Origin: Bilabrum cf. latius
Taxonomy: Eukaryota
DNA: 64,000 nt
NCBI GenBank assembly: GCA_965178125.1
Contig: OZ237748.1
Location: 744,001-808,000 of the forward strand
Direction: 5' to 3'
A model generated the notes under the pieces. That model ran no database searches, was not told the DNA's origin, and saw nothing but the letters and a program-made list of their open reading frames with translations. Positions within the stretch are counted from its first letter, which is position 1; each line of letters begins with the position of its first letter. Shown here piece by piece: positions 7,416 to 46,706 of this stretch. The position numbers and the translations under genes are program-made.

Positions 7416-7504
7416 TACTATAGTAATATACTAGATAAATCTTTAAGTTTTTAAAACTAGAAAATGACTTAAAATAAGTGGTATGAGTTAGTGAATATGT
7501 AAAA

Positions 7505-15965: not shown

Positions 15966-16390
15966 ACTGGCGAACGCTGCCCCTCAGCGCCCGAATAGCA
16001 CGCGGCTTGATTGCCGCTCGAGTCTAATTGTGACCTCTCAACTTCCACATCCGCATGTGGTCGGTGATCCGATCCCCCTGATCCGAGTCACTCGTCACAC
16101 ATGCCCAACCCACACCTGCCCGGCCTGTGCCTCCCCCTTCCTATCCGCCTCATCAACCCAATGACCCCACCGATCATCTTCTCTTCCACCATTTCCTCCC
16201 CCGTTCCGGTGAACCGTCGTCCCCCCCTCCCTTTGCTCTACCCTCCCCCCCTTAGCTGCCCTCTCTCTCTCTCTCTCTCTCTCTCTCGCACTCCTCCGCA
16301 TCGCTACGTCGCATCTGAGCCTGCTCCTCGAGCGGGTCCTGCGCCCACCGAGCGACCTCAATCTCAGAGACCTTGCTGGCCTCACCAACC
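15966..16390 (+). repeat. Dispersed non-coding upstream repeat, copy 1
   Basis: Reverse-complement match to 22041-22579 and partially to 53726-53860; contains a (CT)n tract. Confidence 0.8.
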
Positions 16391-16509: not shown

Positions 16510-16908
16510 AGCTGCGAAGGAGTACATCCCCAACCTGCTGGGCCCGCTGGTCGAAGCCGATAAACATTGTAGCCGTTCATTTGGACTATTACTGCGGCGG
16601 CGAAGCCGAAAGTAGCACGTCCGATCCGGTTTGTTTCCCTTAGCATGTTCAAGGACTTACAGGTGGTTCGGTTCAGGCACGCCCACGATTCCCGCAGAGA
16701 TGCTTCGGTGATATTCAAGGCTGCTGCTGAGGGGCGGCCGCTTGAGCTGGCCAAGCGCACCCGGCTGGGCAAGATGGCAGGTGGGCTGCAGAGGAGAGGG
16801 GTAGTCTTGGACGAGGACGGGAGGCGGCGCACCGTCACCGCGCTGGAGGCAGCAAGGCTTGGTGGGCACGCCGAGTGCGTCAGGGTGCTCGAGGAGGCAT
16901 TGTCGTGA
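16510..16908 (+). pseudogene. Truncated duplicate of the last exon of the 17250-19992 gene
   Basis: Near-identical to ~19595-19992 including the 3' flank; frame break around 16600-16645. Confidence 0.65.
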
Positions 16909-17249
16909 ATTGGTGCAGCGAGTGAGTGCACCGGGGCGGTGCCCGAGGAAACACCAAGCCAATCATGAGTGCATGCGACGAGTATTCAGCATCGTCCAAA
17001 CTGCTAGTCGGCGGAAAATGTCGAGTAGCCGGTGATTCTTCAAGCGAACCAATAGTGAACCACGACGAACCCTTAGTGACCGAGGATCGCAAAATTGGCA
17101 AGAACACCCGTAGTTGTACTTCCAGTAGTCAATTGTTATAAATTTATTCTCAGATATTCAATAGTGAAGCTGTGAATCGTTGCTTAAGCACCTCACGTCT
17201 CTAGAAGCACACATAGGATACAGAAGTACGGCCCGGCTGAGCTTTTTCC

Positions 17250-19992: not shown

Positions 19993-20175
19993 ATTGGTGC
20001 AGCGAGTGAGTGCACCGGGGCGGTGCCCGAGGAGGGCTTGCGTGTAGATTTGCGACAGGCATGCAAGTGGAGCAATAACAAGCAAAAAAAAAAATGTTTT
20101 AATCGTTAAGCGTGGCGGTTACAGGTAGTTGTTTGCTGCATGTACAGGAAGATGGATAGACTTCTGAGAGTATGC

Positions 20176-22040: not shown

Positions 22041-22579
22041 GTTGGCGAGGCCAGCAAGGTCTCTAAGATTGAGGTCGCTCGGTAGGTGCAGGAATCGCTC
22101 GAGTTGCTGGAGCAGGTGCGACGTAGCGATTCGGAGGAGAGAGAGAGATATTGGCTAGTGATGCAGACCAGGAGCGGCGGCAATTCGGGGTGGGCGACGG
22201 ATGGAAACTGTGGTGGTGTGGGTGGAGCAGAGGGACAGGGCGAGGGGTGGGGGGGTCGGGGTGGGGGCTGAGCAGAGAGAGAAGGCGATAGATGGGCGGG
22301 GGGCAAATCAGAGGGGAGGGGGCGGCGGTTCACCAAGTGGGGAGGAAGTAGTGGAGGAGAAGATGAGTGGTGGGGTCATCGGGTTGATACGGCGGATTGG
22401 AAGGGGGAGGCATAGGCCGGGTAGGTGGGGGTTTGGGCATATGTGTGACGAGTGACTTGGATCGGGGGGGATCGGATCACCCAACCACATGCGGATGTGG
22501 AATTTGAGAGGTCACAATTAGACTCGAGCGGCAATCAAGCCGCGTGCTATTCGGGCGCTGAGGGGCAGCGCTCGCCAGT
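22041..22579 (-). repeat. Dispersed non-coding upstream repeat, copy 2
   Basis: Inverted copy of 15966-16390. Confidence 0.8.
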
Positions 22580-22731
22580 CTTTCGCACGTGTCCTCCTGT
22601 GCGGACCTGAGGCCGTCACTGTCTTCCCCCGAACACTAACTCGTACTGGCACCCGATATAGTTTTGTCAACCGTGATTTCCCCCGAGCTAGCATGACAAT
22701 GCACTGCACACCAATCCAAAGTAGACCCCGC

Positions 22732-25643: not shown

Positions 25644-26211
25644 TGACATCGTGACTTCCATGAAAGCTTCTTTTACAGACTCAACCACCCAAATACAACC
25701 AGACATGGCATCGAACACAGAGCCGTCGCCATGTGCCTGAATCCACCGATGGATTTGTCCACCAGCGGAGACACACAACGAATTCTCCGGGCCCGGGCGG
25801 GTGGGAAAAGAATTCAAGACGATCTGTCAGTCCTGAGCTCTTCCACCCCGAATGGAGGCGATTGACTGGAGAAATGCCAACCTCCACTCTTCGTGGCCTG
25901 CCTCTTCCGTTAATCAGATTACGATGTCTAACGCTACAATTCCTCTTCCCACCTACGGACAAGGTGTTGCGGCGTTCTCCTTCTTCGCAGAGCCATCCTC
26001 ATCGCACAGACGCTTATCATCTCATTTGACGTCAACAACGAATCAGACTCTGTCTCCTTAATACCATGACATCGTGACTTCCATGAAAGCTTCTTTTACA
26101 GACTCAACCACCCAAATACAACCAGACATGGCATCGAACACAGAGCCGTCGCCATGTGCCTGAATCCACCGATGGATTTGTCCACCAGCGGAGACACACA
26201 ACGAATTCTCC
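25644..26211 (-). repeat. Outer element 3' repeat block B1-A2-B2
   Basis: 25644-25788 matches 26067-26211; 25806-26066 matches 41811-42071. Confidence 0.93.
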
Positions 26212-26294
26212 ATGTCTTACCATATCTTCCTTACGGGAGGTTGCAGAGGGTGGTCTCGTTGAAGCAAAGCAAAGTGTCTCCAAGTTAGTTGGGA

Positions 26295-27544
26295 TTAGTC
26301 GGACGCCCGAGCTTGTGCCACCGCCTCGAGCAGCGCCGCCTGTGGTGCTCGCTGCAGCTCAAGGTGCGTCCAACCAATATCGATCGCTGGCAGCCCGTCG
26401 GCCTCCTGCCGGATGTAGGTGTTCATGCTCTTGGTGGAAGCCCACCGTCCAAGACGCTGCACAATGCCGTGCTCGATGCCCAGTCGCACCATTGTGGTGG
26501 TGCTGGTGATGCGGAAACTGTGCCCATGCCACCCACTCGCATCATCGTGGTGGCTTGCACAGCTCCGCACCAGGCGTACGACATCGGCTGCGACGATGTG
26601 CCCGTCTTACGGCGACCTGGCGATGCGATCTCCGGGAACAACAACACCTGACTGTTCTGGCAGGCGTTGTGCAGGTGGTGGGGCGAGGTGACCGGGATTC
26701 CCGCCGAGGTCAACCTTGTCACGACGTGCCGGACGAGAAGGTAAACAGGGCAGCATGTGCTGCCCTGTACCCCGCCTTTGTCCACCTACACAGGGGATCG
26801 GGCTGCAATAGCCACCGTGGCTGGTCCACCCGCCTTGGTGAACCGCAGGTGCAGGGAGCAGCTGATCACCTGATTGTCCTCGATTGCCCAGGATACATGC
26901 CTGAGGCGATGCGGGTCAGAGGCAGCCCGTGCCTCTCCGGTGGCCTCGCCCAGGCGCATGGTCCCCCCAAAGGCCAGTGCACCCGCCAACTGGGCCGCAC
27001 TTTCGCCGGGGGTGGATGGCTGGAACTCAAAGAAGCGCCGCACTGCCGACAACGGGATGGGCGTGCGGTGCAGACTCGCAAGGGTTGGCTTGGCTGCCGT
27101 GTAGTGCCTGGCCACTGCATGGCCAAAGTCACCGAGTCCTTTCACTGCGACTCCTCCTAGTCGTTTGTACAAGGACGCCACTTGCGCTGCGTACTGGCTT
27201 GCGGAGGCGCCGCTGATGCCCGGCTCGGCCGCCGCCACGTACGTGATGAATCTGCCGAGTTCCACTTCGAAGGCCTCGTTGCGTGCCGGACCGATGGAGC
27301 CAAAGGCCGGTGGCGCCAGGTCGAGGCCGTATCTGCGGCCGTACGCTGCCCAGTGCCGAAGTGCCGTGGTGCCATTCGCCTCGATGCTCGAGGCGGCCTT
27401 GATGGCCGCAAGTTCGACCAAGTCCTCGTAGGCGTCGGGAGCTCCCTCACCGATTCCCAGTGCGGCGGCAAGTTTGTCGGGTGACCTTCCCTGGACAAGC
27501 GGTCGGCCCAGGTGTTCTCTAACCCTGGTATGTGCCGGCTCCAA
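26295..27544 (-). CDS. Tyrosine recombinase of the retrotransposon (in-frame TAG 26786; frameshift ~26605)
   Basis: Catalytic motifs TMRLGE, FTKAG, CPV, GHSFR, GRW and TYIR; the last three lie in a shifted frame. Confidence 0.88.
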
Positions 27545-27608
27545 ACCTACACGTCGTGGGAGCAGAGGGTGGTGAACAGGTCAGCGAGGATGCGAGCCAT
27601 GCGGACAC
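27480..27608 (-). CDS. C-terminal piece of the retrotransposon RNase H
   Basis: VRMARILADLFTTLCSHDVxVWSRHIPGLENTWADRLSR (HIPG..N..AD.LSR motif). Joins 37154 in frame once the insert is removed. Confidence 0.85.
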
Positions 27609-27862
27609 CGTCAGTTGTGTGCCGTAGGTACGGAGGCACGTTACGAAGTGATTTAGATCGGAGAGATTGTGTAGTATTGGTCGCAAGTCCGAGCGCAGAT
27701 GTGAGGCTCTCACTTGTTCGGAATTTCGGTGGCACCTGTGTTCTACAGCTGTGCCCCGATATTCTCAGTAATAATTGTCATTATGTGGCAATACACACTG
27801 GGAAGACAGGCAGGGGCAGCTCCAGAGGAGGTGATTCCCACTGCTTGTTGTTTTGAACAGAG

Positions 27863-30485
27863 CTGATTTGCACAGCCGGTTTCCGTTCGCATGCCCGCTT
27901 AGGGAGCCCGTTCGGACCAGCTGCACAGATTGCATAGATTTGGTACATATTGCATTCGATTGTCATTGGAGCCTGCTTCGTCAGGACGCCATGACGCCTG
28001 ATCGTGCTCTTGGCCCCGTGGCTACTGCCGATCATGGATTCGATGCCGAGACTAGCAGCATGCCATTTTGGCGCCCGGCCTGTCCTGATGTCCGCTTTGC
28101 ATGAGTGATTTTGCATTTCTATGGGTATGATTAGCTGGTCTCGCTCGTCGAGCCAGCATTTGCCCGTGTGTTGGTGAACACCGCTTTTGCATTGATTTGC
28201 ACAGCTGGATTCCGTTCGCATGCCCGCTTAGGGAGCCCGTTCGGACCAGCTGCACAGATTGCATAGATTTGGTACATATTGCATTGGATTGTCATTGGAG
28301 CCTGCTTCGTCAGGACGCCATGACGCCTGATCGTGCTCTTGGCCCCGTGGCTACTGCCGATCATGGATTCGATGCCGAGACTAGCAGCATGCCATTTTGG
28401 CGCCCTGCCTGTCCTGATGTCCGCTTTGCATGAGTGATTTTGCATTTCTATGGGTATGATTAGCGGGTCTCGCTCGTCGAGCCAGCATTTGCCCGTGTGT
28501 TTGTGAACACCGCTTTTGCATTGATTTGCACAGCTGGATTCCGTTCGCATGCCCGCTTAGGGAGCCCGTTCGGACCAGCTGCACAGATTGCATAGATTTG
28601 GTACATATTGCATTGGATTGTCATTGGAGCCTGCTTCGTCAGGACGCCATGACGCCTGATCGTGCTCTTGGCCCCGTGGCTACTGCCGATCATGGATTCG
28701 ATGCCGAGACTAGCAGCATGCCATTTTGGCGCCCTGCCTGTCCTGATGTCCGCTTTGCATGAGTGATTTTGCATTTCTATGGGTATGATTAGCTGGTCTC
28801 GCTCTTCGAGCCAGCATTTGCCCGTGTGTTTGTGAACACCGCTTTTGCATTGATTTGCACAGCTGGATTCCGTTCGCATGCCCGCTTAGGGAGCCCGTTC
28901 GGACCAGCTGCACAGATTGCATAGATTTGGTACATATTGCATTGGATTGTCATTGGAGCCTGCTTCGTCAGGACGCCATGACGCCTGATCGTGCTCTTGG
29001 CCCCGTGGCTACTGCCGATCATGGATTCGATGCCGAGACTAGCAGCATGCCATTTTGGCGCCCTGCCTGTCCTGATGTCCGCTTTGCATGAGTGATTTTG
29101 CATTTCTATGGGTATGATTAGCTGGTCTCGCTCGTCGAGCCAGCATTTGCCCGTGTGTTTGTGAACACCGCTTTTGCATTGATTTGCACAGCTGGATTCC
29201 GTTCGCATGCCCGCTTAGGGAGCCCGTTCGGACCAGCTGCACAGATTGCATAGATTTGGTACATATTGCATTCGATTGTCATTGGAGCCTGCTTCGTCAG
29301 GACGCCATGACGCCTGATCGTGCTCTTGGCCCCGTGGCTACTGCCGATCATGGATTCGATGCCGAGACTAGCAGCATGCCATTTTGGCGCCCTGCCTGTC
29401 CTGATGTCCGCTTTGCATGAGTGATTTTGCACTTCTATGGGTATGACTAGCTGGTCTCGCTCGTCGAGCCAGCATTTGCCCGTGTGTTTGTGAACACCGC
29501 TTTTGCATTGATTTGCACAGCTGGATTCCGTTCGCATGCCCGCCTAGGGAGCCCGTTCGGACCAGCTGCACAGATTGCATAGATTTGGTACATATTCCAT
29601 TGGATTGTCATTGGAGCCTGCTTCGTCAGGACGCCATGACGCCTGATCGTGCTCTTGGCCCCGTGGCTACTGCCGATCATGGATTCGATGCCGAGACTAG
29701 CAGCATGCCATTTTGGCGCCCTGCCTGTCCTGATGTCCGCTTTGCATGAGTGATTTTGCATTTCTATGGGTATGACTAGCTGGTCTCGCTCGTCGAGCCA
29801 GCATTTGCCCGTGTGTTTGTGAACACCGCTTTTGCATTGATTTGCACAGCTGGATTCCGTTCGCATGCCCGCTTAGGGAGCCCGTTCGGACCAGCTGCAC
29901 AGATTGCATAGATTTGGTACATATTGCATTGGATTGTCATTGGAGCCTGCTTCGTCAGGACGCCATGACGCCTGATCGTGCTCTTGGCCCCGTGGCTACT
30001 GCCGATCATGGATTCGATGCCGAGACTAGCAGCATGCCATTTTGGCGCCCGGCCTGTCCTGATGTCCGCTTTGCATGAGTGATTTTGCATTTCTATGGGT
30101 ATGATTAGCGGGTCTCGCTCGTCGAGCCAGCATTTGCCCGTGTGTTTGTGAACACCGCTTTTGCATTGATTTGCACAGCTGGATTCCGTTCGCATGCCCG
30201 CTTAGGGAGCCCGTTCGGACCAGCTGCACAGGTTGCATAGCTTTGGTACATATTGCATTGGATTGTCATTGGAGCCTGCTTCGTCAGACGCCATGGCACG
30301 TGATCTTGTAGTTGGCCCCGTGGCCTCCTACTGCCGATCATGGATTCGATGCCAGGAGGTGGTCGCATGCCATTTTGGCGCCCTGCCAGTCCTGATGTCC
30401 GCTGTGCATGAGTGATTTTGCATTTCTATGGGTATGATTAGCTGGTCTCGCTCGTCGAGCCAGTCTCTGCCTGTGTGTTGGTGGA
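27863..30485. repeat. Tandem array of a 329-bp unit, ~8 copies
   Basis: Identical short ORFs recur at 28197, 28526, 28855, 29184, 29513 and 29842; the last copy is degenerate. Confidence 0.95.
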
Positions 30486-31289
30486 AACTGCACCGTTTGA
30501 TCGGCACAGCTCCTTTGGGACCCCGGTTCCAAGGGATCATGGTCTTGGCAGCACTGCCTGTTATGATTGACGGTGCTATTTCCGTTTCTTTGAATGAGCT
30601 CATACCAGCCTGTCTCAAGTACCGTTCAACCGGCCAAACTTTTCAGCCCAGAGCTGCTGTCTATTTTTGCGGCTTCCAGTTTGCCTAGCCGTACTCCACG
30701 AGACACCATTTCCTAGCCACCGACGGTTCTGGCTATTATCATGATTCCCTGAGGGCTTGTAGGGCCTCAACCCTGACACCGAGAGACGATTCTGGTCCTC
30801 GTGTGCAGCTGCGGGTCGCTTCCGCCTCAGGCGTACACAATCCTACATGTGGTTCACTTCCACAGTCAGCTATACTAGCTCTCATTGGCTAGACTGATAA
30901 ATCCGTGCTTGCCGCCGTCTTCCTATCTCGGCGACAACAGGGGCACTTCGAATTTGCCCACCTCTTGCGCGTTCTGCCCTCATCAGAGCCTGCACAATTC
31001 GACAGCGTGAGCTGCTGGGGAGGTTCATCTAGACATTTTGTCTATTACTAATGGCCTCACAACACGCTTTAGGGAGCTGTGCCCTATTTACATCGATGTG
31101 CTGCCGCCGCCGCCAGGTAGCGCCGTACATCGCACAGTCCGCCATATCACGGCGGCTTGACCTGTTCGCATCTTGCGACAATAGCAGGCATGTTCTATAA
31201 ATGTGTACCTTTTTCCGTAGCCTCCATCTAGTGTTTGCAGCTGCCTTCGCATTCAAATTGCTCCAGTTCGTCCAGGCTTCGCTACAGGT

Positions 31290-34200
31290 TGCCATGGTCG
31301 CATTTGCCCGACCAGCTCATTGCCCAGGCTTCGGATATGCAGTTGCTCGTGGCAGCGACGTCCCTGGTATGCCTGGCCTCTTGCTCTGGGCCGCCATCGC
31401 GCCGTCGGCCTTGACATGGTCGCATCTGCCCGAGCTGCTCCTTGCCCATGAATGGGCTTCGGATATGCAGTTGCTCGTGGCAGCGACGTCCCTGGTGTGC
31501 CTGGCCTCTTGCTCTGGGCCGCCATCGCGCCGTCGGCCTGGACATGGTCGCACTTGCCCGAGCTGCTCCTTGCCCATGAATGGGCTTCGGATATGCAGTT
31601 GCTCGTGGCAGCGACGTCCGTGGTGTGCCTGGCCTCTTGCTCTGGGCCGCCATCGCGCCGTCGGCCTTGACATGGTCGCAATTGCCCGAGCTGCTCCTTG
31701 CCCATAAATGGGCTTCGGATATGCAGTTGCTCGTGGCAGCGACGTCCCTGGTGTGCCTGGCCTCTTGCTCTGGGCCGCCATCGCGCCGTCGGCCTTGACA
31801 TGGTCGCACTTGCCCGAGCTGCACCTTGCCCATGAATGGGCTTCGGATATGCAGTTGCACGTGGCAGCGACGTCCCTGGTGGGCTTCGCCACTGGCTGAG
31901 GGCCGCCATCGGTTACTCGGCCTTGACATGGTCGCAATCGCCCGAGCTGCTCCTTGCCCATGAATGGGCTTCGGATATGCAGTTGCTCGTGGCAGCGACG
32001 TCCCTGGTGTGCCTGGCCTCTTGCTCTGGGCCGCCATCGCGCCGTCGGCCTTGACATGGTCGCAATTGCCCGAGCTGCTCCTTGCCCATGAATGGGCTTC
32101 GGATATGCAGTTGCTCGTGGCAGCGACGTCCCTGGTGTGCCTGGCCTCTTGCTCTGGGCCGCCATCGCGCCGTCGGCCTGGACATGGTCGCAATCGCCCG
32201 AGCTGCTCCTTGCCCATGAATGGGCTTCGGATATGCAGTTGCTCGTGGCAGCGACGTCCCTGGTGTGCCTGGCCTCTTGCTCTGGGCCGCCATCGCCCCG
32301 TCGGCCTTGACATGGTCGCATCTGCCCGAGCTGCTCCTTGCCCATGAATGGGCTTCGGATATGCAATTGCTCGTGGCAGCGACGTGCCTGGTGTGCCTGG
32401 CCTCTTGCTCTGGGCCGCCATCGGTCATTCTGATTGGACATAGTCGCACTTGCCCGAGCTGCACCTTGCCCATGAATGGGCTTCGGATATGCAGTTGCTC
32501 GTGGCAGCGACGTCCGTGGTGTGCTTCGGCACTTGCTCTGGGCCGCCATCGGTCATTCTGATTGGACATGGTCGCACTTGCCCGAGCTGCTCCTTGTCCA
32601 TGAATGGGCTTCGGATATGCAGTTGCTCGTGGCAGCGACGTCCCTGGTGTGCTTCGCCTCCTGCTCGCGGCCGCCATCGCGCCGTCGGCCTTGACATGGT
32701 CGCATCTGCCTGAGCTGCTCCTTGCCCATGAATGGGCTTCGGATATGCAGTTGCTCGTGGCAGCGACGTCCGTGGTGTGCCTGGCCTCTTGCTCTGGGCC
32801 GCCATCGCGCCGTCGGCCTTGACATGGTCGCAATTGCCCGAGCTGCTCCTTGCCCATAAATGGGCTTCGGATATGCAGTTGCTCGTGGCAGCGACGTCCC
32901 TGGTGTGCCTGGCCTCTTGCTCTGGGCCGCCATCGCCCCGTCGGCCTTGACATGGTCGCAATCGCCCGAGCTGCTCCTTGCCCATGAATGGGCTTCGGAT
33001 ATGCAATTGCTCGTGGCAGCGACGTGCCTGGTGTGCCTGGCCTCTTGCTCGCGGCCGCCATCGGTCATTCTGATTGGACATAGTCGCACTTGCCCGAGCT
33101 GCTCCTTGCCCATGAATGGGCTTCGGATATGCAGTTGCTCGTGGCAGCGACGTCCGTGGTGTGCCTGGCCTCTTGCTCTGGGCCGCCATCGCGCCGTCGG
33201 CCTGGACATGGTCGCAATTGCCCGAGCTGCTCCTTGCCCATGAATGGGCTTCGGATATGCAGTTGCTCGTGGCAGCGACGCCCGTGGTGTGCTTCGCCTC
33301 CTGCTCGCGGCCGCCATCGGTCATTCTGATTGGACATGGTCGCAATTGCCCGAGCTGCTCCTTGCCCATGAATGGGCTTCGGATATGCAGTTGCTCGTGG
33401 CAGCGACGTCCGTGGTGTGCCTGGCCTCTTGCTCTGGGCCGCCATCGCGCCGTCGGCCTGGACATGGTCGCAATCGCCCGAGCTGCTCCTTGCCCATGAA
33501 TGGGCTTCGGATATGCAGTTGCTCGTGGCAGCGACGTCCCTGGTGTGCCTGGCCTCTTGCTCTGGGCCGCCATCGCGCCGTCGGCCTTGACATGGTCGCA
33601 TCTGCCCGAGCTGCTCCTTGCCCATGAATGGGCTTCGGATATGCAGTTGCTCGTGGCAGCGACCTCCCTGGTGTGCCTGGCCTCTTGCTCTGGGCCGCCA
33701 TCGCCCCGTCGGCCTTGACATGGTCGCATCTGCCCGAGCTGCTCCTTGCCCATGAATGGGCTTCGGATATGCAGTTGCTCGTGGCAGCGACGCCCGTGGT
33801 GTGCTTCGCCTCCTGCTCGCGGCCGCCATCGGTCATTCTGATTGGACATGGTCGCAATTGCCCGAGCTGCTCCTTGCCCATGAATGGGCTTCGGATATGC
33901 AGTTGCTCGTGGCAGCGACGTCCCTGGTGTGCCTGGCCTCTTGCTCTGGGCCGCCATCGCGCCGTCGGCCTTGACATGGTCGCATCTGCCCGAGCTGCTC
34001 CTTGCCCACGTCTGGGCTTCGGATATGCAGTTGCTCGTGGCAGCGACGCCCGTGGTGTGCTTCGGCACTTGCTCGCGCCGCCATCGGTCATTCTGATTGG
34101 ACATGGTCGCACTTGCCCGAGCTGCTCCTTGTCCATGAATGGGCTTCGGATATGCAGTTGCTCGTGGCAGCGACGTCCCTGGTGTGCCTGGCCTCTTGCT

Positions 34201-35765
34201 CTGGGCCGCCATCGCGCCGTCGGCCTTGACATGGTCGCATCTGCCCGAGCTGCTCCTTGCCCACGTCTGGGCTTCGGATATGCAGTTGCTCGTGGCAGCG
34301 ACGCCCGTGGTGTGCTTCGGCACTTGCTCGCGCCGCCATCGGTCATTCTGATTGAACATGGTCGCATCTGCCCGAGCTGCTCCTTGCCCATGAATGGGCT
34401 TCGGATATACAGCTGCTCGTGGCAGCGCCTTTCGTGGTGTGCTTATCCACTTGCTATTTGCCGTCATGGTTCAATTAGCTTGGGCATGATCGCATCTGCC
34501 CGAGCTGAATCCTGCCCACGTAAGGGCTTCGGATTTGCAGTTGATCGCGGCAGCGCCGTTCGTGGTGTGCTTCGGCACTTGCTCTGGGCTGCCATAGCTC
34601 AGTTGGCCTGAACATTGTTGCATCTGCCTGAGCTGCTCCCTGCCCACGTCTGGGCTTCGGATATGCAGTTGCTCGTGGCAGCGCCTTTCGTGGTGTGCTT
34701 CGGCACTTGCTCTTTGCCGCCATGGCTCAGTTGGCCTGGACATGCTCGCACTTGCTCGAGCTGCTCCCTGCCCACGTAAGGGCTTCGGATTTGCAGTTGA
34801 TCGCGGCAGCGCCGTCCGTGGTGTGCTTCGGCACTTGCTCTTGGCCGTCATCGCTCAGTTGGCCTGGACATGGTCGCATTAGCCCGAGCGGCTCCCTGCC
34901 CACGTAAGGGCTTCGGATATACAGTTGCTCGTGGCAGCGATGTCCGTGGTGTGCTTATCCACTTGTTCTTGGCCGTCATGGCTCAATTAGCTTGGGCATG
35001 ATCGAAATTGCTCAAGCCGATTCCTGTCCACGTACGGGCTTCAGATATGCAGTTACTCGTGGCAGCGCCTTTCGTGGTGTGCTTATCCACTTGCTCTTGG
35101 CCGCCATGGCTCAGTTGGCCTGGACATGCTCGCACTTGCTCGAGCTGCTCCCTGCCCACGTAAGGGCTTCGGATATACAGCTGCTCGTGGCAGCGATGTC
35201 CGTGGTGTGCTTATCCACTTGCTCTTGGCCGTCATGGCTCAATTAGCTTGGGCATGATCGCATCTGCCCGAGCTGAATCCTGCCCACGTAAGGGCTTCGG
35301 ATTTGCAGTTGATCGCGGCAGCGCCGTCCGTGGTGTGCTTCGGCACTTGCTCTGGGCTGCTATAGCTCAGTTGGCCTGAACATGGTCGCATTAGCCCGAG
35401 CTGCTCCCTGCCCACGTCTGGGCTTCGGATATACAGTTGCTCGTGGCAGCGATGTTCGTGGTGTGCTTCGGCACTTGCTCTGGGCCGCCCTCTGTGAGTT
35501 GGCCCGGTCGTGCTCGCACTTGCTCGAGCTGCTCCCTGCCCGCATATGGGCTACGGATAAGTAGTTGTTTGTGGCAGCGATGTCCGTGGTGTGCTTAACC
35601 GCTTCCTCTTGTCCGCCATCGCTCAATTGGCCTGGGCATGATCGCATCTGCCCAATCTGATTCCTGCCCACGTAAGGGCTTCGGATTTGCAGTTGATCGC
35701 GGCAGCGACGTCCGTGGTGTGCTTCGGCACTTGCTCTGGGCTGCCATAGCTCAGTTGGCCCTGGC
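31290..35765. repeat. Tandem array of a 128-bp unit, ~35 copies
   Basis: ATGGGCTTCGGATATGCAGTTGCTCGTGGCAGCG recurs every 128 bp (31452, 31580, 31708...); copies diverge after ~34400. Confidence 0.95.
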
Positions 35766-37153
35766 ATTGTGGCATTGGCCAAGATCTGCAATTGGCGTTG
35801 ACCATCTGGTCTTTGTTATTATGGGAGTTTGGTTGGTTAGTGTCTATAGTTTAATGGACATTTCGTAGTAATACAGGTTTTGCAATAGTCTATGCCATCC
35901 TAGACGATTGTGGGAGATTCATATTGGGAGTTTGAATGAGAAGTTCTTCTAGGTTTGAGTGCAATCGTTTTGGGAGTTTGAGTGCAATCGTTTTGGATGG
36001 AGGGAAGAAGTAGCATTTCGGAATACAGCTTGGGATTTCGTGACACAACTTTGCATCGGTTTACCTACCAATGCATTGAGTGGCCGTGCACAGCACTGGG
36101 AGTTCACTTTGATACCTGGCCATACACACGCTTTCGACGTGGCATTACATACGGCAAAGGGCAATACCACGTCAGTGCAATACCCCACATGTGGGTAACG
36201 GCGGGGCAAGCACTGACTGGCAGTGAATCGATACAGGGCTGTTGCTCCGCGCTGTTAGCGGTTGTAACCGCTTCGCCAAGACAATCCAAGTCTTGGCAGA
36301 GCCGTGAGGCATGGTGACTCGGCAACCCATACCAGGGCTGCCCGACCACTAGCACATGACCTGGAGATAGAGCCAGGTCGGTCACTAGACACACGCGTGT
36401 CTACAAAGGTGGCAATACGCCACCGCCCTGAGAGCCAAGCATCGTAGCGAGGACTGTAGACCAAGACGAAACAATCTCGCAGTGATAGATCCCGTCAGTT
36501 GTGTGCCGTAGGTACGGAGGCACGTTACGAAGTGATTTAGATCGGAGAGATTGTGTAGTATTGGTCGCAAGTCCGAGCGCAGATGTGAGGCTCTCACTTG
36601 TTCGGAATTTCGGTGGCACCTGTGTTCTACAGCTGTGCCCCGATATTCTCAGTAATAATTGTCATTATGTGGCAATACACACTGGGAAGACAGGCAGGGG
36701 CAGCTCCAGAGGAGGTGATTCCCACTGCTTGTTGTTTTGAACCCACCCACCATCCCCGCAGTTACTACCACTGCAGCGCTACTTCAGCAGTGCCTACTAT
36801 CGCATCCCATCGCCAGTCTTTTCATTCGTAACTCATCACATTTTACCCGCCCACCTTCCCCCTTGGGCAAGCACTGACTGGCAGTGAATCGATACAGGGC
36901 TGTTGCTCCGCGCTGTTAGCGGTTGTAACCGCTTCGCCAAGACAATCCAAGTCTTGGCAGAGCCGTGAGGCATGGTGACTCGGCAACCCATACCAGGGCT
37001 GCCCGACCACTAGCACATGACCTGGAGATAGAGCCAGGTCGGTCACTAGACACACGCGTGTCTACAAAGGTGGCAATACGCCACCGCCCTGAGAGCCAAG
37101 CATCGTAGCGAGGACTGTAGACCAAGACGAAACAATCTCGCAGTGATAGATCC

Positions 37154-38936
37154 TACGACAAAACCCACGACGCAAACAATGCACAGAGGCGGAGTTGTCA
37201 CACCGCACAAGCAACACATGTCCCCGCAGTTCGTTCTTCCAATGATCACACAGGATCTCAATGCATCCGAGTTCGAGAGCCGAGATGTCGTTGGACAGTA
37301 GGCAGGTAGAATCCGGCCACGTGCCGTAGATGGCCTACGTGGCACCTGAGGGCCAGACCAAGTAGCCACCCCATCCATGCAGCGATGCGTCCGTGAACAT
37401 CACTGGATCGCGTTCGGGATCGTGCTGTCGCGGGAACGAGCGGCCATCCTGGTGCAGCAGGGCATGTCGCCACCATCGCAGGGTCCTCTGAACCTCGGCT
37501 GGAACGGAGAGTACCGAGGCGTGCTCGTTGGCATGCAGCCACGAGAACAGAGGTCTGCAGCGCGGTTTGGCAGGCAGGATGGCTTCTGCCACGTAGCACA
37601 GCAGGCCCACCAGCGATTCTCCCGTTGACCGACGGATCCCAGCCTGGGTGGCCCCCAAGATGCCGTCAATGAGCCCGACCGCCTTCGTGACCTTGGACGG
37701 CTGCACGTACACCTTGAACTCATCCAGCGCTACCGTGTACCCTAGGAAATCGAACCGAGGCCCCGGGGTGCCCACTTCCAGTGCTTTCGACTCGCTGACT
37801 TGGAGGCCCACTCGCGCAGCATCATGCACGAACTACATGGCCAAGTGATCAATCCGCGCCAACGGTGCCACTAAACCAAAATCATCCACGAAGGTCGACG
37901 TTGCAGTCGTGGGCCGCACAGGATCGAAATTCCAGCGCTCCTCAAAGGCGTCACCGAAGCAAGTCGTCGCCGTGGTGACGTGACCAGGGCTGCTCTTGTT
38001 GCCCATGCCGAGGCGCGTGCCGAGCAGCACCATGTCGCCGATGCGCAATTGCTGATACGGAATGTCACCAACAGCCAGCGGGAACTGCCAGAAGGCCTTG
38101 CTGAGGTCAATTGTCAGGCCCGCCAGGGGCTCGGAGGTGTGCTGCGAGATGCGCACGGCCTTGCGCATCAGCTCGCCGATCGATGCCATCGGGGCACTCG
38201 TCCAGCGCTCGTATTCGACTGCCACGTTGGCCCCCAACAGGGTGCCCGCCCGCTTGTCCGATGCATCCACCAAGAGCCGATAGTCGCCAACCTTCTTCTT
38301 AGGGATCGCAACCACCGCGCTTACCGGGGTGCTCGGTGCAGATGACGCTGCGATGGCCAACCTACGCGACTCACGCAGGCTGGCTCCCAGCTCGCAGTGC
38401 ACTGCAGCCGCAGCCTCAGTCGGGATGGAGTTTGTCGGCAGCTTGACCTGCTGCTGGACAGCTGCTGTGCGGCCCATCGGGAAACCGTGGGCAAATCCAC
38501 ACAGCGTCCGCTCAGCCGGTGACATGGCCTTCCAGTCCTTGGCTCGGAAGGTACGAGGCGGGCACGCTGCACGCAGGTACGTAGCCCACTGCACCTGCTT
38601 CGCTCTGGTGGCGCGTGCTGCTTCGGGGTCGCCCGTGAGCACCATGGGGTCCGCTGTCAGGTGGGCCACCAGTCGCTGGTGCTGTCTACCAAGCGCTGGC
38701 GGTGCCTCTTTGGCACGACTGCGCCCCTCCGCATCCTGCAGGGATCGCATCCAGGCTGCCCACGTTTGCGATGGCGCAGCTGAGTCATCCCAACTGCTAG
38801 GAACCCACGGTTCCACTGGCACGACAGACGAGGCGGATAGCCATTCGGCCCAGTCAGAAGTGCCCCACGTATTTCCTTGGCTTGAGCCCAGCAGCTCGTC
38901 CTCCTCCGATGGAGAACTGCTCAGATCTGAACTCAC
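37154..38936 (-). CDS. Reverse transcriptase plus N-terminal part of RNase H (5' limit uncertain)
   Basis: YRLLVD, IDLSKAFWQ, LGMGNKSSP, FVDDF, FTDAS, ISALEL and VRCDNS motifs in one frame across TAG 37833 and 37335. Confidence 0.92.
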
Positions 38937-39668
38937 GCCCTACCTCTCCGAGCTCCAGGCTCGGAGGACCCAACCACTGCCCCCGGCAGTGGGATCCACC
39001 AAGGCGTGGGATTGATTGTTCCCGATGCCTCGATGTAGCACCTGACACGCTGCGAAGGACAGCAGGGGCCGCTTACGGTCCACTACTGGCTTGCAGAGCT
39101 GCCAGTCAGGGTCACCTTGGCCCTGGTCGCGCACCCGTGGCGTAGGGGTGCGTGGCCGAAGCCTCGGTAACGCTGCTGACGTAGTCGATGCTGCAGGGTA
39201 GCTGACACGGATCTCCTGGGCCGCATGCACTGCTGCTGCACCCTCCGCTGGTACTTCCCCGCTGACTTGACGATGACGTCGTGGCTACTGTAACCACCGC
39301 TGCCCAATTGCATTAGTGACCACGTCCTGCCGTCCGAAACTGCCGTCGTATACGTTCCGCTCCTCATTCAGCTGTTGAGTGTTCCCCGACCCAACTGTCC
39401 GTTGCTGAAGCCATCCCGAGAAGCCGGCCACCGAAGCGACCGGCGCACAATCCTACCCACGGAAGGACAGGTCCTGTTGTACCAGAGGTGAGAGAAGTCC
39501 TCTGGCACGGCCCCGCCTCCATTCCCGAACACAGCGTTTGAGCCCCTGCTCCAGGCGCCGTGCATGTAGTCGCCGGAGGCGGCGCCTCTCCTGCGTGTAG
39601 AGGCGCCGCCGTCTCCTTGAAGGCCTGCCCGGCCGCCACCTGCTGTGGCGGCACGGGCGTGCTGGCCT

Positions 39669-41798
39669 TCATGAGGAGCCCTGGGCGAGCTCGATGGTCT
39701 TCTCCAGTTGGGCCACTGCCGCCGCCGTTCCGAGTGCTTGGCCCTGTGGCGTGCTGCTCAGCAGTGCTGGTCCGATGCCGTGCGGGCCCTCTGGGCACAA
39801 GCACGCACGGATGACCTGCACTACGCGGCCAGGCTCCACGCCTTCGAGCGGGTCAGAGTCCTCAAGGTCATCGCCCTTGAGGTACGCCGTGATCAGCGTG
39901 TGCACCTGGTCCCTCGCCGCCATCATATCGGCCTGACTGTTGGTGCGAATCGCTGGCACTGCGATTCCCATCTTGCCCTGCGCGGTCAGCACGATGGCAG
40001 TGAACACGTCCTTCGCTGCTGCACGAGACGTCTGGAGCCCTGTGCCGAAGCTGCCGCCTGCAGTGCGCGCCAGAAGCTGCAGCTTCCACAGCTGCCTGCC
40101 CCAGGACGCCAGGGACTGCGTGATTGCTGTCGCACCGGCATGAAACTCCTCAACATCCGCCTCAGGCCTGTACGGCGACATCGACTGGGCCGGTGGGGTC
40201 GGCCAGGCAGGTCCTGACGTGGCGTACGTTTCCACCACTGCTGTAACCGCCCGTGCATATGCCCGCACCAGTGCGTAGGTGAACAGCGCGAACGGCCGAG
40301 GGTGCACCAAGTCCTCATGTCTGGGCACCGCGAGATCAGGAAATAGCGGATCATCGCTCTTGAGCTGGAGCAGGTCTGCCCAGCTCTTCTTGATGCGCTC
40401 GTCATCCCCGGTGATTGCCGAGGCCAAGATGCCTGCCGCCTTCGTAAGGTACTTGGAGGTAGCTGCCAACGACATCCGCGGGGGGCAGTCGCTGCTCGCC
40501 TGCAGTGCTGCAATCAGCTCCGCCTTCGCGATCTGAACGAACATCCCCCGGAACTCGGTGGCTTTGATTTGGCCTGGCCCGTGATCACGGAGTAACGAAG
40601 CGGGGACAAACGCAGACTACACCACATCAGACTACACCACACCACGCACCAAGGACTCACCCGGGTCAGCTGCACCCGCACCCGTGGCCGCCGGTAGCTT
40701 CCGCTCCTTGGCATGGCGCCTGACGAGTGCGACCACCTGGTGGAGAGCCGGCATCTCCAAGCCTGTTTCAGCTGCTCGCTGCTGCTCATGCGTCACCCGT
40801 TCGAGGAACGCGATCGCCAATATAATGGCGTGCTCTTGGCTCTGTGGTGCATGCTGCATGCGCCGTCCCAGCGCCCGCAGCTGCTTCGTCATGGCCCCAT
40901 CGAGGGCGCGGAGAGTGGAGTCCGCCTCCGGCCATCCGCCCGCTGCCAACAACGCAGCCTCTACGGCCATCGACAGACGCATCTGTTCGTCCTCGGTCTC
41001 CTTCAGGGCCTACTGCCGCTCAGCCGTCCAGGGATGCAGCCACGCTCGCACCGCAGCGCTCCACTCGCTGGGCACCGCCGCCAGGCCGCCAAGGCTCGCT
41101 GCAGGCCCGGGGCCACTGCCTGGAGCGTGTGCAAGGGATTGATCGCGGGGAATTGACCCCAGCGGCTGCCGGGCCGGTGCTCGGCCTGCCTGCCGCGGCC
41201 GGCTGCCGGCACGAGGCCCGGCACCGGCACCTGCTGGAGCTCCACCCACAGCTCCACCCGCAGCCCCTGCTGCCGGGGCGCTTGAGGTCGACACCGCGCT
41301 CCCGGCGTGCGCATGTGCGTAGGCATCCTCCGCCTTGCGAGACAGTACGAAGGTGTCCGAGTCCTGCGCCGTTGCGGTCGGCTCAGGAAGTTCAAGCCAG
41401 GATGCGAAGGACGGGAAGGAGTCAGGCAGAACCGTGGAATAGGGTTGTCCATGCACGCCCTTCATGGTGACCACCGCTGTCAACAAGTATCGAATCATTG
41501 ATTCAATTATCTGTGCGCGCTTCGGAGACCCACGCCGTACGCCTTTGATGGCCTCGTTCCACTGCGCCTCTAGCGCGAGGAGCCGCTCTGCGGTAAACCC
41601 ACACACTCCGGTCACCGATGCCCATTGCATTGGATCAGACAAGGCCCCAAAGCATGCCTCAAAAAGGAAAATAGCACGTTGAAAACCGGGTTCTTTCAAG
41701 GCCAATGTCGTGAAAATGCCACGCCAAAACTGCTGAAGCCGCGCCATCACGCCCTAGCGCTCCGGCTGAACTGTATCTGCACCCGCACCCGAAGACAT
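39669..41798 (-). CDS. Retrotransposon ORF1 (gag-like), ~709 aa with 4 in-frame TAG
   Basis: ATG 41798 lies just after repeat A1. ORFs 41750, 40982 and 40544 share one frame, linked by TAG 41754, 41010, 40632 and 40617, ending TGA 39669. Confidence 0.72.
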
Positions 41799-41810
41799 GA
41801 GACCACAACA

Positions 41811-42071
41811 AAAAGAATTCAAGACGATCTGTCAGTCCTGAGCTCTTCCACCCCGAATGGAGGCGATTGACTGGAGAAATGCCAACCTCCACTCTTCGTG
41901 GCCTGCCTCTTCCGTTAATCAGATTACGATGTCTAACGCTACAATTCCTCTTCCCACCTACGGACAAGGTGTTGCGGCGTTCTCCTTCTTCGCAGAGCCA
42001 TCCTCATCGCACAGACGCTTATCATCTCATTTGACGTCAACAACGAATCAGACTCTGTCTCCTTAATACCA
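41811..42071 (-). repeat. Outer element 5' repeat A1
   Basis: Matches 25806-26066. Confidence 0.93.
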
Positions 42072-42077: not shown

Positions 42078-43917
42078 GTGGAGGTCACACCGCCAGCCCA
42101 AGCACCCTATCCTGGCAGCAAAGCACTCTTGGTAAGATGCAACATAAAATGCATATTCTCAACGACTGTATGGGGTCTATTAAAGCTCTTCAATGACCTT
42201 TTTTGCGACTTTTCTAAATCGAAGGAGGGCAAGAACGCATTAATGCGCATCGTTCTTACAAATGATCTAGACATACTCAAGAAGACTTTCCACCTGGATG
42301 CCTCGCGTGATCAAATTGATGCGAGAGATGCTGTGAGGATATTGTGCTGCGAATAGATGCTTGAACTGGCGATTACCACCAGCGGCTGTGAATCACCCCT
42401 CAGTGCTGATCTTCAATGCACGCAGCATGGTAACACTGCACTTCATTATGCAGCTCAGATAGGAAATGATAGAATAATTTCGATGCTTATACGCCGCTCT
42501 TCTGACCTACGGCCACAAAATAATGTGAGCGGGGTTAGAGAGGCATGTACAATCGAGTGGTATTCACGCAGTCCTTTGAAGCCTATCTTTCAAATTCCGA
42601 TTTATTTGTTTGAACAGCCATTAAGTTGCGATTGTTTCCAGGATGCAGGCCGGGAAGCTGCCCTCTGACCTGTGGACGCCGCGAAGTCCGGACGAAATAA
42701 GCTACTCGGGCATCGAGGCAGCTGCATCGACCGTGCCGATGATGGGCCGCTGGGTACACGCAGCAAAACCGCCGGGCAAGCTGAAATTGCTGTTCTCGTA
42801 GGGTGACAGCATTGTTCCAGCTGATGATGAAACGTCAGAGGCCGTGGGCGATATCGCGTAGATTCTAGAGCTAAGCAAAATTGTCGCTGACAACTCTCCT
42901 GAGCTGCATGGCTTGTACAGCAACTTGCGATGCGCTATACATGTCATGGCATCCTTCTTTCGATACGCCCTACGTTGCAAAACCGTCCAAGACGCAGCGG
43001 GAGCAATTCATCAGGCCGCCAAGCTCGCGTCTGCTACCCTCCACCTGGACAAGAACATTAACTCCCGCTAGATGCTTGCGTCGAAGAATTTTGGACTATT
43101 GAGCGGAAGCTTTGAGTCCAGTTTATACCTGGGTCCAATGACGTCTTTGCCAGGGTAGGATGTTAGCAAGTTCTACGTAGGTCTGATCACTGATTCTACC
43201 AAACTTGGAATTCAAGACAAGTTGGCACTGCTCATGTCCATGGCGCGAGATGGTCCTACTACTATCTCCATTCAGGTTGTACGAGATCTGTATAGTTTGG
43301 TGAAGGCCTTCGTATTTGAGCCTTTTCGAATTTTGGAGCCAGGCACCGGCAGTGCAACGATTGTGTAGACTTGCGCGTACTAGCTTGTTTAGCTTCTCCT
43401 TCGCACGAGGGTACAATCCGGAACCTTCGATGACCATACATTCGCGAGCATGACAGGATTTGCTTTTACGCGTGTTATGGAGGAGGCCAAGTACATGACC
43501 CCCCGAAAAAGGTCGGAAATTCTACATGCCGCAGGTCCTGTCTGGCAAGACGACAAGACCAGCTGGAGTACGTTTCCAGCGAGCGGCGAGCCGTGCATCA
43601 GCTATCACGGAGATGATACGGTGGTTAGTTCCCCGCTTTTAACAGAGCTTCGAGTTCGTGATCGACGCAAGCTGGTTCGCTGGAGGAGGGCAACCGAAGC
43701 AGAACGAGACGCGGGCAGGGTCTTCCGAGCGGCAAGCGAGGGGAGGCCCATGGAGCTGGAGAAGCGGCTGAGGCTGGGCAAGCTGGCCGGCGGGTTGCAG
43801 ATCAAGGGTTCGGTAGCAGAGAAGGGCGGGGCCAAGCGAATGATGCTCCCCCTCGATGCAGCCCGCCTTGGAGAGCATGACGAGTGCGTGAAGCTGCTGG
43901 AGGAGGCTCTGGCATGA
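42078..43917 (+). CDS. Ankyrin + central unknown domain + C-terminal module protein (5' end uncertain)
   Basis: Ankyrin exon 42426-42524 (GNTALHYAA); long last exon with several TAG; module ends TGA 43917. Confidence 0.78.
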
Positions 43918-44144
43918 CAAGTGCGACACGCCAGTTAATGGCCCTTCTTTGGACAACAGTTATTTTCTGACCGACAACGTGTATTTTTATTCACTCTGGT
44001 TCGTGGGCAGGTCGTTTTGCTGCTGGCAATGGCAAATCACAGTGGGGCGAGCGCAGCTTTTCAAGATGAAGACGCAAAACTTGAGATGTTCCAGTAGCAC
44101 TAGGACATTGGGATTCGCCGAGGCAATTTACTCTCCAAGGAGCC

Positions 44145-46209
44145 ATGATCCAGTCATGTCTGGCTTGCTTAGGATTTACAGATCAATCGTAGTCCCCAAG
44201 AACAGTATCAGTACTTGAGAATGACACTGGGCCACCATAGGCGGAGCGCACTGGGAGCGAAGCTGAACAGATACTGCACGCCCAGCTGGCCAATAATATG
44301 CTCCACAGCAAGCACTATTGGAAAGTAGGAGACAGTGTGAGGTATATTGTCAAGCTTTTGCTTCTTGCACATATCCACTATGCTATTCTGTTTGACACTT
44401 AAATTTACTCCAAAATTGCTATAATGCACCTGCAGCAAGGAAAGAATGCGCTGATGCATGCCGTGCTCGCTGGGGATTTAGATTTGTTTGAAATTAGTTT
44501 ATTCAGATGCGTTGCTGCTGGGCAGCAAGATGCCAAAGACAATGTGAGAGATGTGCTGATTCTGGTTCAACACTAGGACGAAGCAAACTACATCTACTCC
44601 AGAGGGAAAGTGACAGTTTAGCCCAGTTTGCACACGATCCATGCGACCTTGCAGAGTGGGAACACCGCGTTGCATTACGCAGCTAAGATGGGGCGGCACG
44701 ACATGGTTGCTATGCTGCTTCGCAATTGTACCGAACCGAGGCCATTAAATCACGTAAGTGATGGCTTTTTTTTTTTTTAGCGAGGACCGCGCAAAGCCTT
44801 ACAATTATTGCTCTAATAAACTCTGCGAAAGCCATATTATGTTTGCATGCCGCTAGTGAGTGCAGGAGGGCAAGAAGCCTATTGACCTGTGGCCAAGCAG
44901 GGGAGGGGGCGTGGGCCTCCGGTACAGCTTAATCGAGGCAGCGGCATCCAAAAAGCCTTGCGTTGGGCCAGTCGATCGTATCGTGTGTGGAGTGACAATT
45001 CCCATGAAACTTAGACTGCTCTATTGGCAAGGAGACAGCGTGAGTCCTCGGGAGGTCCTTGCATCGGGCGTGATCGGCGGAATCAAAGAGATGCTAGAAT
45101 ACAGCAAGACTCTTCCTGACAACTCGATGAAACATGTTGGGATTTACAGCGCACTGCGTTGCGGGTTGCACGTCGTCGCGGCTCTCCTACGACTCAGCTG
45201 CGCTACAAAATGCCAGCGTGAAGCCACCGATGGAATCCGGTCGGCTGCTAAGCTGGCCAGTGCGATTCTCCACCTGCCTGACAATAAGGACTCAAAACAG
45301 CTGCTAGTTAGGTAGAAGCACGGTATATTTAGTGCGAACAAAGAAGCAGTGCTATACACCGGGCCTACTACCAGGTTTCCGCCTTCTGGTGCTGGCAAGT
45401 TTGTCGTTGGTCTCCTCACCGATTCTGCAGAGCTTGGCATCTAGGACCTCGTGTCGGCACTCACGTCGAGGGTATTGACAAATAGACCATACGTTCCTCT
45501 CCAAGTTGTGCAGGGCCTGTTTCGGCTTACGGCGGCATTTGTGCTTGTTCCGTTCCGAATCGTCACCTGCACTCCAGGGTTGCACACGCCGGTGCAGACC
45601 AGCGCCAGGCAGATCATGCAGCTTCTGCTGACCACTCGCGTGCAGTGCGTGCCTAACGATGAGCAAGTGATAATTAACATGGGCAGGATGTGTATTGATG
45701 CAGTGGTAAAGGAATCGCGAGACTTTTGGTACGCAAAGACCGAGGATATTCTCCACCCCGTACCTTGCGAGGATTCAACGCCTATCTTCATTAACCCGCT
45801 TAGCGGTAAGCCCTGCTGCTACAACTATCCGGATGGTTAGTCAAAACATTTGCGCTCGTCTTGGGAAAATGAAGCTTCACGTCGAGATCGAATGAAACTA
45901 GCTCGATGGAGACGAGCAGTAGAGGCCAGGCGAGACGCAGGGAGAGTATTCCGCGCAGCTGCTGAGGGCAGGCCGCTTGAGCTGGGCAAGCGACTGAGAC
46001 TGGGCAGGCTGGCAGGTGGGTTGGAGATCAAGGGGAAAGTAGACGGTACTACTGCCTCTGTGGGACCGCTGTAGGCGGCAAGGCTTGGGGGGCATGCCGA
46101 GTGCGTGCGGGTGCTGGAGGAGGCTATTGCGGAACTGAAGGCCAATCACACACACACAGCCCTTCCGATGGTCACCAGAGGCCTACATGTAGTCTACCCC
46201 CACGCGTGA
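44145..46209 (+). CDS. Ankyrin + central unknown domain + C-terminal module protein
   Basis: Exons QGKNALMHAV.. and GNTALHYAAKMG... ORFs 44860, 45451 and 45850 are joined by TAGs; TGA 46207-46209. Confidence 0.78.
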
Positions 46210-46706
46210 AACTCGCGAGGACTAATGATATTCAGTATTGATGCCGGAGATGGATGTCTAGTTTCTGCTCCGGGTTGAGGTCCTCTGTGTTGGGCCATTG
46301 TAGCTTTGAGGAGGCTGGAACGGACTACCTGGTCGGCGGGAGTACATTGATGACAATCATGTCGATACTTATCCTCTGCTAAGTTAATCGAATTATTTTC
46401 GGCATGCAGAGACGACTATCTCCAGTTAAATCTATAGTTTCGGAAGATGAAGATTAAATTAACTAGACTAGAGTCTAGCCCGGGCTAGGCAGACTTCTGT
46501 ACGGTGCCTGGCCTGGTTTATAGAGACATGTTGACAGGCAGTTACAAGCAAAGTACTTCTATAAGGCACTGGTTACAACTGAGCTGGCATCAAACTTCTG
46601 GAGTTCCGTGTAGAACGTTCTATCTTCGCGAACCTTCGCTTCGAATTCCCCACCCAGATCTGTCCCCACCCCTTCCATTTATACTCCCACTATTAGGTTC
46701 TAAGTT

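Follow-up and report, generated by a model that had tools for sequence, protein, structure and literature searches.

The 64-kb stretch of contig OZ237748.1 analysed here (assembly GCA_965178125.1, positions 744,001 to 808,000 of the forward strand; hereafter the window, to which all coordinates refer) contains a coding retroelement on the minus strand, the outer element, whose pol frame is interrupted by a second element, the inner element (27609-37153), made up largely of tandem repeats. Both possess split direct repeats, which are called A and B in the outer and X and Y in the inner element (Table 1). An earlier interpretation made from the letters alone, referred to below as the sequence-only reading, had described the inner element as a non-autonomous, Ngaro-like element that carries satellite DNA and is nested in the RNase H of another Ngaro.

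Table 1. Parts of the inner and outer elements, and examples of frames opened by reading TAG as sense
Feature	Position	Strand	Remarks
X1, 5' terminal repeat (A1 equivalent)	27609..27858	+	250 bp; 251 bp (27608-27858) if the ambiguous C is counted, then equal to 36492-36742
329-bp array, 8 copies	27864..30491	+	Starts 5 bp past X1; Tandem Repeats Finder ends at 30483, BLAST extends the last copy to 30491
u1, unique interior segment	30492..31288	+	797 bp
128-bp array, about 35 copies	31289..35780	+	Tandem Repeats Finder 31293-35780
u2, unique interior segment	35781..36203	+	423 bp; mini-repeat of 23 bp x 1.9 at 35953-35996
Y1, internal copy of 3' repeat (B1 equivalent)	36204..36492	+	289 bp, strongly structured
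X2, internal copy of 5' repeat (A2 equivalent)	36493..36742	+	Y1/X2 junction equals the joined ends
X2-Y2 spacer	36743..36864	+	122 bp, unique, C-rich (43% C, 11% G)
Y2, 3' terminal repeat (B2 equivalent)	36865..37153	+	Equal to Y1, 100%
Outer A1	41811..42071	-	261 bp
Outer 5' part	37154..41810	-	gag-like open reading frame 39672-41831, TGA 39669-39671, pol 39668-37155; reverse transcriptase and start of presumed RNase H
Outer 3' part	26212..27608	-	Rest of pol 27606-27145; tyrosine recombinase 27580-26426, then shifted frame 26606-26298
Outer B1, A2, spacer and B2	25644..26211	-	B1 26067-26211; A2 25806-26066; C-rich 17-bp spacer 25789-25805; B2 25644-25788
TAG-as-sense examples	4132-6930 (-), 137-2023 (+), 42625-52694, outer element 26212-41831 (-)

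Architecture and insertion site of the inner element

Comparison of the window with itself by BLAST gives the order X1-interior-Y1-X2-spacer-Y2 and a length of 9545 bp, and so places the limits where the sequence-only reading had put them. An ambiguity of one base exists at each end (27608/27609 and 37152/37153), because the C at 27608, 36492 and 37153 can be assigned to either repeat. The X copies (251 bp) and the Y copies (289 bp) are 100% identical within each pair, and the interior from X1 to Y1 measures 8345 bp. The left end of the element begins with CGTCAG and the right end closes with GATCC. The internal Y1/X2 junction (...GATAGATCC/CGTCAGTT...) is identical to the two element ends joined, as had been claimed. 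The layout X1...Y1-X2-Y2 given by the sequence-only reading is borne out as far as the repeats are concerned, but X2 and Y2 are not adjacent: a single-copy spacer of 122 bp, which that reading overlooked, sets them apart.

The insertion site is preserved to the base. The minus-strand frame of the outer element extends from 41753 to 37155 and is taken up again at 27606, and when the flanks are joined across 37154/27608 they read RGFCR-S-VRMARIL in frame, with an AGT codon spanning the break. No base is duplicated and none is lost, the only uncertainty being the 1-bp ambiguity mentioned above; removal of the element hence restores the frame without duplication, in agreement with the earlier claim. 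For two perfect repeats (251 and 289 bp) to have their outer limits just where a reading frame of the host is broken in phase is far beyond chance. The inner element lies in the opposite orientation to the outer one, as previously noticed, and its repeats are indeed unlike the outer A and B, since all 12 local alignment scores between X or Y and A or B fall inside the range of 100 shuffles. Self-comparison revealed no further copies of X or Y in the 64-kb window, and no inverted repeat pairs of at least 30 bp are present between 25000 and 40000. The class test for Helitrons uses their terminal motifs and insertion site. An assignment to long terminal repeat (LTR) retrotransposons, terminal inverted repeat transposons, foldback transposons or Helitrons was rejected, given that the two ends differ from each other (X versus Y), that inverted pairs of this length are lacking, and that the insertion is duplication-free.

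Tandem arrays

The two arrays of the inner element (2.6 and 4.5 kb) comprise 7108 of its 9545 bp, or about 74%. Tandem Repeats Finder reports 8.0 copies of a 329-bp unit at 27864-30483 (97% matches) and 35.1 copies of a 128-bp unit at 31293-35780 (87% matches), and the one unit is not related to the other. Copies 1 to 7 of the 329-bp unit share 97.6-99.7% identity and the last copy is about 88% identical. The 128-bp monomers are far more heterogeneous, with 72-99% identity overall in a matrix of 34 monomers and differences of up to 27%. The left two thirds of this array are homogenised and consist of two interleaved subtypes, with identities mostly of 95-99% inside the commoner subtype and 84-91% across subtypes. 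The right third is diverged (72-95% identity) and shows a periodicity of six monomers, the best agreement being found at lag 6 (0.889). Neither unit has a copy in the 54 kb of the window outside the element, and no part of the element matches this remainder with an E-value better than 0.058. The expectation that the units occur only between X and Y therefore holds within the window. Satellite DNA is understood as extended head-to-tail arrays of a unit of high copy number, as a rule at more than one locus; in using this name for the two arrays, and in letting them seed such arrays at new loci, the sequence-only reading said more than the window shows.

Coding capacity

No enzyme domain was detected in the inner element when 62 frames were scanned against Pfam under the standard code, and only four of them had any listing at E <= 0.1. 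The scan covered 59 of the 65 stop-to-stop frames of at least 40 aa that touch non-array parts, together with three array frames; the six frames left out lie mostly in the outer flanks. The sole score over a curated cut-off was LonB_AAA-LID (24.2 versus 22.4 bits) in a 680-aa array frame, which is a sum over repeats with no individual stretch passing the cut-off. Of the 116 frames of at least 60 aa that exist when this codon is taken as sense, 58 hold a TAG, and the 18 that were scanned, comprising all those in unique parts plus array examples, yielded no enzyme domain and a single listing (E 0.046). The unique segment u1 has no credible Pfam domain under either code, with one match at chance level (E 0.03-0.05), and the unique segments show no significant similarity to the rest of the window, outer element included, by blastn or tblastx (best tblastx E 0.058). 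Long minus-strand frames through the 128-bp array were considered as genes and rejected: 128 is not a multiple of three, no single stretch passes the cut-off of the one Pfam family whose summed score does, and minus-strand stop triplets are few because the plus strand contains only 12% A. The description of the interior as some 7 kb of tandem repeats with no enzyme genes is thereby confirmed. Lacking a reverse transcriptase (RT), an RNase H and a tyrosine recombinase (YR), the inner element can therefore only be a non-autonomous derivative.

Structure and candidate cis signals

Both copies of Y form a string of near-perfect hairpins with a predicted RNA folding energy of -113.7 kcal/mol (z = -4.56; none of 200 shuffles is as good). 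X also folds better than all of 200 shuffles (z = -2.66). Positions 55-104 of X are weakly complementary to positions 226-275 of Y (72% over 50 nt, E 0.002), which is the sole cross-match among the parts of the element. Rfam (gathering threshold over the whole window, and E <= 1 over 35700-37300) and ARAGORN returned nothing, hence Y is no known RNA and no tRNA-derived module. The folding of X and Y would suit a function as RNA or as single-stranded cDNA.

Inner and outer elements both have a C-rich spacer before the last repeat, of 122 bp and 17 bp, respectively. The 8-mer ACCCGCCC is found in both spacers in sense orientation, 13-20 nt upstream of the last repeat and after a T run, and the spacer bearing it may represent a shared cis signal.

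The outer element

Without the insert the outer element (25644-42071) is 6883 bp long and has the order A1-interior-B1-A2-17 bp-B2 on the minus strand, with A repeats of 261 bp and B repeats of 145 bp that are 100% identical within each pair. Its gag-like and pol frames share the same phase and are divided by a single TGA. An RVT_1 match is obtained at E 8e-4 on the stop-free frame, below the Pfam cut-off, and at E 4.2e-5 with TAG read through (profile positions 1-205 of 205; 23.8 bits versus a cut-off of 29.6). The C-terminal part of Phage_integrase is matched downstream (E 1.3e-5; 25.5 bits versus a cut-off of 27.1), and there is one apparent frameshift in the recombinase near 26600. A Ngaro would be expected to combine split direct repeats with RT, RNase H and YR in that order and to lack a methyltransferase; for the latter there is no room here, because the end of pol and the YR frame overlap. 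When the outer RT frame was used as a query, a word-index protein search gave no match and a full HMMER scan only nine remote ones.

The sequence-only reading had placed the insertion inside RNase H. The break indeed lies in the outer pol frame, about 190 residues past the end of the RT match and upstream of the recombinase; the RNase H itself was not confirmed, either by Pfam on fragments or by phmmer against PDB, the latter giving only two chance-level listings (E 0.26 and 0.82). From its position and a motif familiar from such enzymes we presume that the region is an RNase H. A TDAS..GWG stretch near the break is common to two remote relatives (P0003 and P0004), and a weak lead comes from the Atlas, where RT_RNaseH is assigned to 10% of one cluster (score 0.92). 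The AlphaFold model of the N-terminal part has a mean predicted local distance difference test score of 37 and was not used.

We considered the outer element as a decayed copy in view of its in-frame stops and rejected this, as eight of the nine stops in 41753-37155 are TAG, which appears to be read as Gln elsewhere in the window. Because TAG reads as sense, the outer element seems largely intact, save for the inner insertion and the apparent recombinase frameshift. It was also discarded as a helper of the inner element, its ends being unrelated to X and Y.

Genetic code of the window

The window appears to stem from a nucleus in which UAG, and UAG only, is read as Gln. The ninth in-frame stop of the outer frame 41753-37155 is the TGA at the gag/pol boundary, and the other two frames over the same interval contain 12 TAG, 67 TGA and 8 TAA (TAG 12/87). 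When TAG is taken as sense, a primase-helicase of 932 aa that contains 11 TAG codons becomes readable (Prim-Pol E 3e-13), as does a 628-aa protein in which MCP_V20_C, a capsid domain of virophages, scores at the cut-off (E 3.5e-6). Three of the 11 TAG codons of the primase-helicase fall in conserved columns, and at each of these Q is found in 10/10 database homologues. Similarly, 6 of 11 TAG positions in the two closest paralogues of a gene set at 42.6-52.7 kb face Q in the other copy. TAA and TGA still terminate these frames, and as a control, reading TGA as sense was seen to lengthen frames indiscriminately. ARAGORN found no tRNA genes in the window. A code in which UAG alone is reassigned to Gln belongs to a rare type, according to passages of PMC5304391 and PMC11687900.

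Class assignment and known relatives

We regard the inner element as very probably derived from a split-direct-repeat retrotransposon of the DIRS order, as a non-autonomous form without genes that is mobilised in trans. According to parts of PMC9210276 and PMC8547959, split direct repeats consist of an A1 copy at the 5' end and a B1-A2-B2 block at the 3' end, the two A copies being equal to each other and likewise the two B copies. The inner element has this arrangement (X1 = X2 and Y1 = Y2), with the 122-bp spacer between X2 and Y2. Every complete DIRS-order family tabulated in the supplement of PMC12477816 has a target-site duplication (TSD) of 0; the inner element likewise lacks one, and it departs from the order in encoding no enzyme. 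Cryptons are described as having short direct repeats, 4-6 bp in length, on either side (passages of PMC13465315 and PMC4157794).

The name Ngaro, as used in the sequence-only reading, is justified for the anatomy and goes too far for the lineage. PAT-like families of Ectocarpus also have the A-int-BAB layout (PMC12477816 supplement), VIPER has a split layout too (sections of PMC4157794 and PMC13465315), and split repeats are described as homoplasious, having arisen more than once (PMC4157794, in part). In that same portion of PMC4157794, Ngaro is separated from PAT-like elements by the lack of a methyltransferase domain and by the phylogenetic placement of RT and YR. The inner element has a Ngaro-like layout, and as its genes are absent, Ngaro cannot be told from a PAT-like or another split-repeat lineage.

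The closest counterparts come from a curated library of Ectocarpus. Ngaro-N1_Ec32 is non-autonomous and has the same A-int-BAB layout, internal tandem repeats and no TSD (PMC12477816 supplement), a likeness in description. It differs in that its B repeat shares about 90% with the B repeat of an autonomous Ngaro, whereas X and Y are without known partner; for the A or B repeats of Ngaro-N1 and Ngaro-3 the same supplement reports a likeness of roughly 80-90%. Ectocarpus uses the standard code; a different host and a different family are hence probable for the inner element, because the window appears to read TAG as sense. PAT-N1_Ec32 is also non-autonomous, with the A-int-BAB layout, tandem repeats and a comparable size (9475 bp versus 9545 bp here), but it retains a PAT-like pol fragment, whereas no pol remnant was detected in the inner element (PMC12477816 supplement). 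An internal tandem repeat is present in Ngaro-1_Ec32 as well, according to the same supplement; in the main text of PMC12477816 neither the name Ngaro-N1 nor PAT-N1 occurs. Elements of this kind have therefore been published before, and the present copy adds one more member, which probably comes from a different host.

Autonomous Ngaro elements, for instance those of Cafeteria burkhardae, have the same A1-[ORFs]-B1A2B2 order (ORF, open reading frame) and nest in other mobile elements and in each other, as parts of PMC8547959 describe. They differ in possessing Gag, RT with RNase H and a tyrosine recombinase within about 6 kb, whereas the inner element is gene-less and three quarters of it are arrays. 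The main text of PMC8547959 has no occurrence of 'non-autonomous' or 'tandem repeat'. Carriage of tandem repeats is well documented for other transposon classes, in passages of the papers on array-carrying LTR retrotransposons (PMC7004042), the foldback transposon Tetris (PMC4079207) and tandem-repeat miniature inverted-repeat transposable elements (PMC3879986). All of these have internal tandem repeats and are proposed as satellite sources or carriers, but their transposition chemistry and their ends are different.

Proposed mechanism and origin of the arrays

Mobilisation of the inner element would begin with a transcript reaching from within X1 to within Y2, which would be copied by the RT of an autonomous relative absent from the window. 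The internal Y1/X2 junction would act as a template for restoring the ends and joining them, and the tyrosine recombinase of the relative would then insert the product by conservative recombination and so leave no duplication. This follows the model for split-repeat elements, in which a transcript without its extreme ends has them restored from an internal copy of the joined ends; for DIRS-1 the internal complementary region is shown to be essential (both in passages of PMC7192593). The arrays would travel as cargo, with monomers that diverged long before the insertion of this copy, and array length probably shifts from copy to copy, by template switching or by unequal exchange.

The view that the arrays are cargo, held already by the sequence-only reading, agrees with a comparison of divergences. 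There are 0 differences in the 540 bp of the X and Y pairs and 0 in the 406 bp of the outer A and B pairs, and the outer pairs are older than the inner insertion, because the inner element inserted into the outer one. Since the pairs are identical while the 128-bp monomers differ by up to 27%, with subtypes and a higher order, the arrays most likely arrived with the element and did not grow afterwards.

Alternative explanations

It is unlikely, in our view, that the element inserted with little or no tandem repeat and that the arrays were expanded in place or recombined in from a satellite locus afterwards. Unequal exchange can enlarge arrays fast, the 128-bp array is strongly homogenised on its left side (95-99% in one subtype), the 329-bp copies are 97.6-99.7% alike, and the term used for internal repeats of this sort by the annotators of Ectocarpus is 'variable length' (PMC12477816 supplement); these points speak for later growth. 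However, point divergence as large as that of the 128-bp monomers, with their subtypes and diverged six-monomer higher order, cannot postdate an insertion whose repeat pairs show no differences unless it was imported, and neither array unit is found elsewhere in the window. Quite improbable is a DNA unit that moves without any RNA step, for instance a satellite-bearing circular DNA integrated by a tyrosine recombinase and resembling a retroelement in layout only. No feature demands reverse transcription, duplication-free insertion is expected from any tyrosine recombinase, and the interior has no retroelement remnant; yet the A1...B1-A2-B2 arrangement is described only for reverse-transcribing YR elements (Ngaro, PAT-like and VIPER) in the relevant sections of PMC13465315 and PMC4157794, and the surrounding coding element has the same layout down to the C-rich spacer. 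We give least credence to a faulty assembly that fused satellite reads with split-repeat fragments, and consider it highly improbable: long arrays and perfect repeats are typical sites of assembler error, but both outer limits sit exactly where the 4.6-kb open pol frame stops and resumes in phase, and the layout is internally consistent to the base.

Several points weigh against a trans-mobilised retroelement derivative with the arrays as its cargo. Only a single copy is visible in the window, so that mobility is deduced from one insertion, and an autonomous partner with X/Y-like ends was not found there, the outer A and B being unrelated. No sequence feature proves an RNA intermediate. Integration of circular cDNA, called established in the sequence-only reading, is a model: the cDNA of DIRS-1 is mostly linear and single-stranded, with the circle only inferred, as stated in passages of PMC7192593. 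The identity of the repeat pairs could stem from gene conversion or assembly polishing, and these, along with import from a satellite locus, could provide ways round the argument from array age. Moreover, ACCCGCCC is weak evidence for a shared signal, with 5 matches in the window versus 2.0 expected and 5 of 100 shuffles reaching 5.

Significance

The inner element provides a clean case, resolved to the base, of a split-repeat retroelement cut down to its ends plus cargo. It marks the parts probably needed in cis (X, Y, the Y/X junction and the C-rich spacer) and demonstrates that kilobase arrays can ride in split-repeat elements. A far-reaching proposal, which we consider doubtful, is that it represents a young gene-less split-repeat family, mostly composed of satellite-type arrays, in a eukaryote with UAG = Gln; such a family would spread arrays to new loci via a tyrosine recombinase and have its array size remodelled in each reverse-transcription cycle, and DIRS-order elements would be a way of founding and dispersing satellites that reviews have so far passed over. 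A 2025 review of transposon-derived satellites has no mention of DIRS, Ngaro or tyrosine recombinase (PMC12628747), and the inner element offers a concrete family for asking whether tyrosine-recombinase retroelements disperse satellites. Its value is that of a test case and not of a discovery, as the kind is represented in one curated library (PMC12477816).

Other features of the window

Positions 1 to about 9000 form an AT-rich block with a G+C content of 30-41%, compared with 50-65% elsewhere. This block encodes the MCP_V20_C capsid protein and the Prim-Pol protein with a Walker-A helicase, and resembles a portion of an integrated virophage-like element that the start of the window truncates. 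Dispersed repeats of 70-165 bp are found at 2045-3744 and 7497-8694.

Five tandem paralogues of 430-500 aa occupy 42625-43914, 44860-46206, 47279-48781 and 49608-50996 on the plus strand and 51360-52694 on the minus strand. They have no match in Pfam and share a conserved C-terminal stretch, RDR.KL..WRRA.EA.RDA..VF.AA..GRP.EL.KRL.LGK.AGG, which also opens a kinase-bearing frame at 13188-15566. A duplicated segment (10044-12156 and 13818-15569; 75-96% identity) has a partial protein kinase domain in each copy, with a long run of poly-Glu at the end of the first. Finally, a 290-bp direct repeat pair (16660-16949 and 19744-20033; 97% identity, 3.1 kb apart) is enclosed by a 308-bp inverted pair (15963-16270 and 22274-22582; 86% identity), and both pairs probably belong to other nested transposons.

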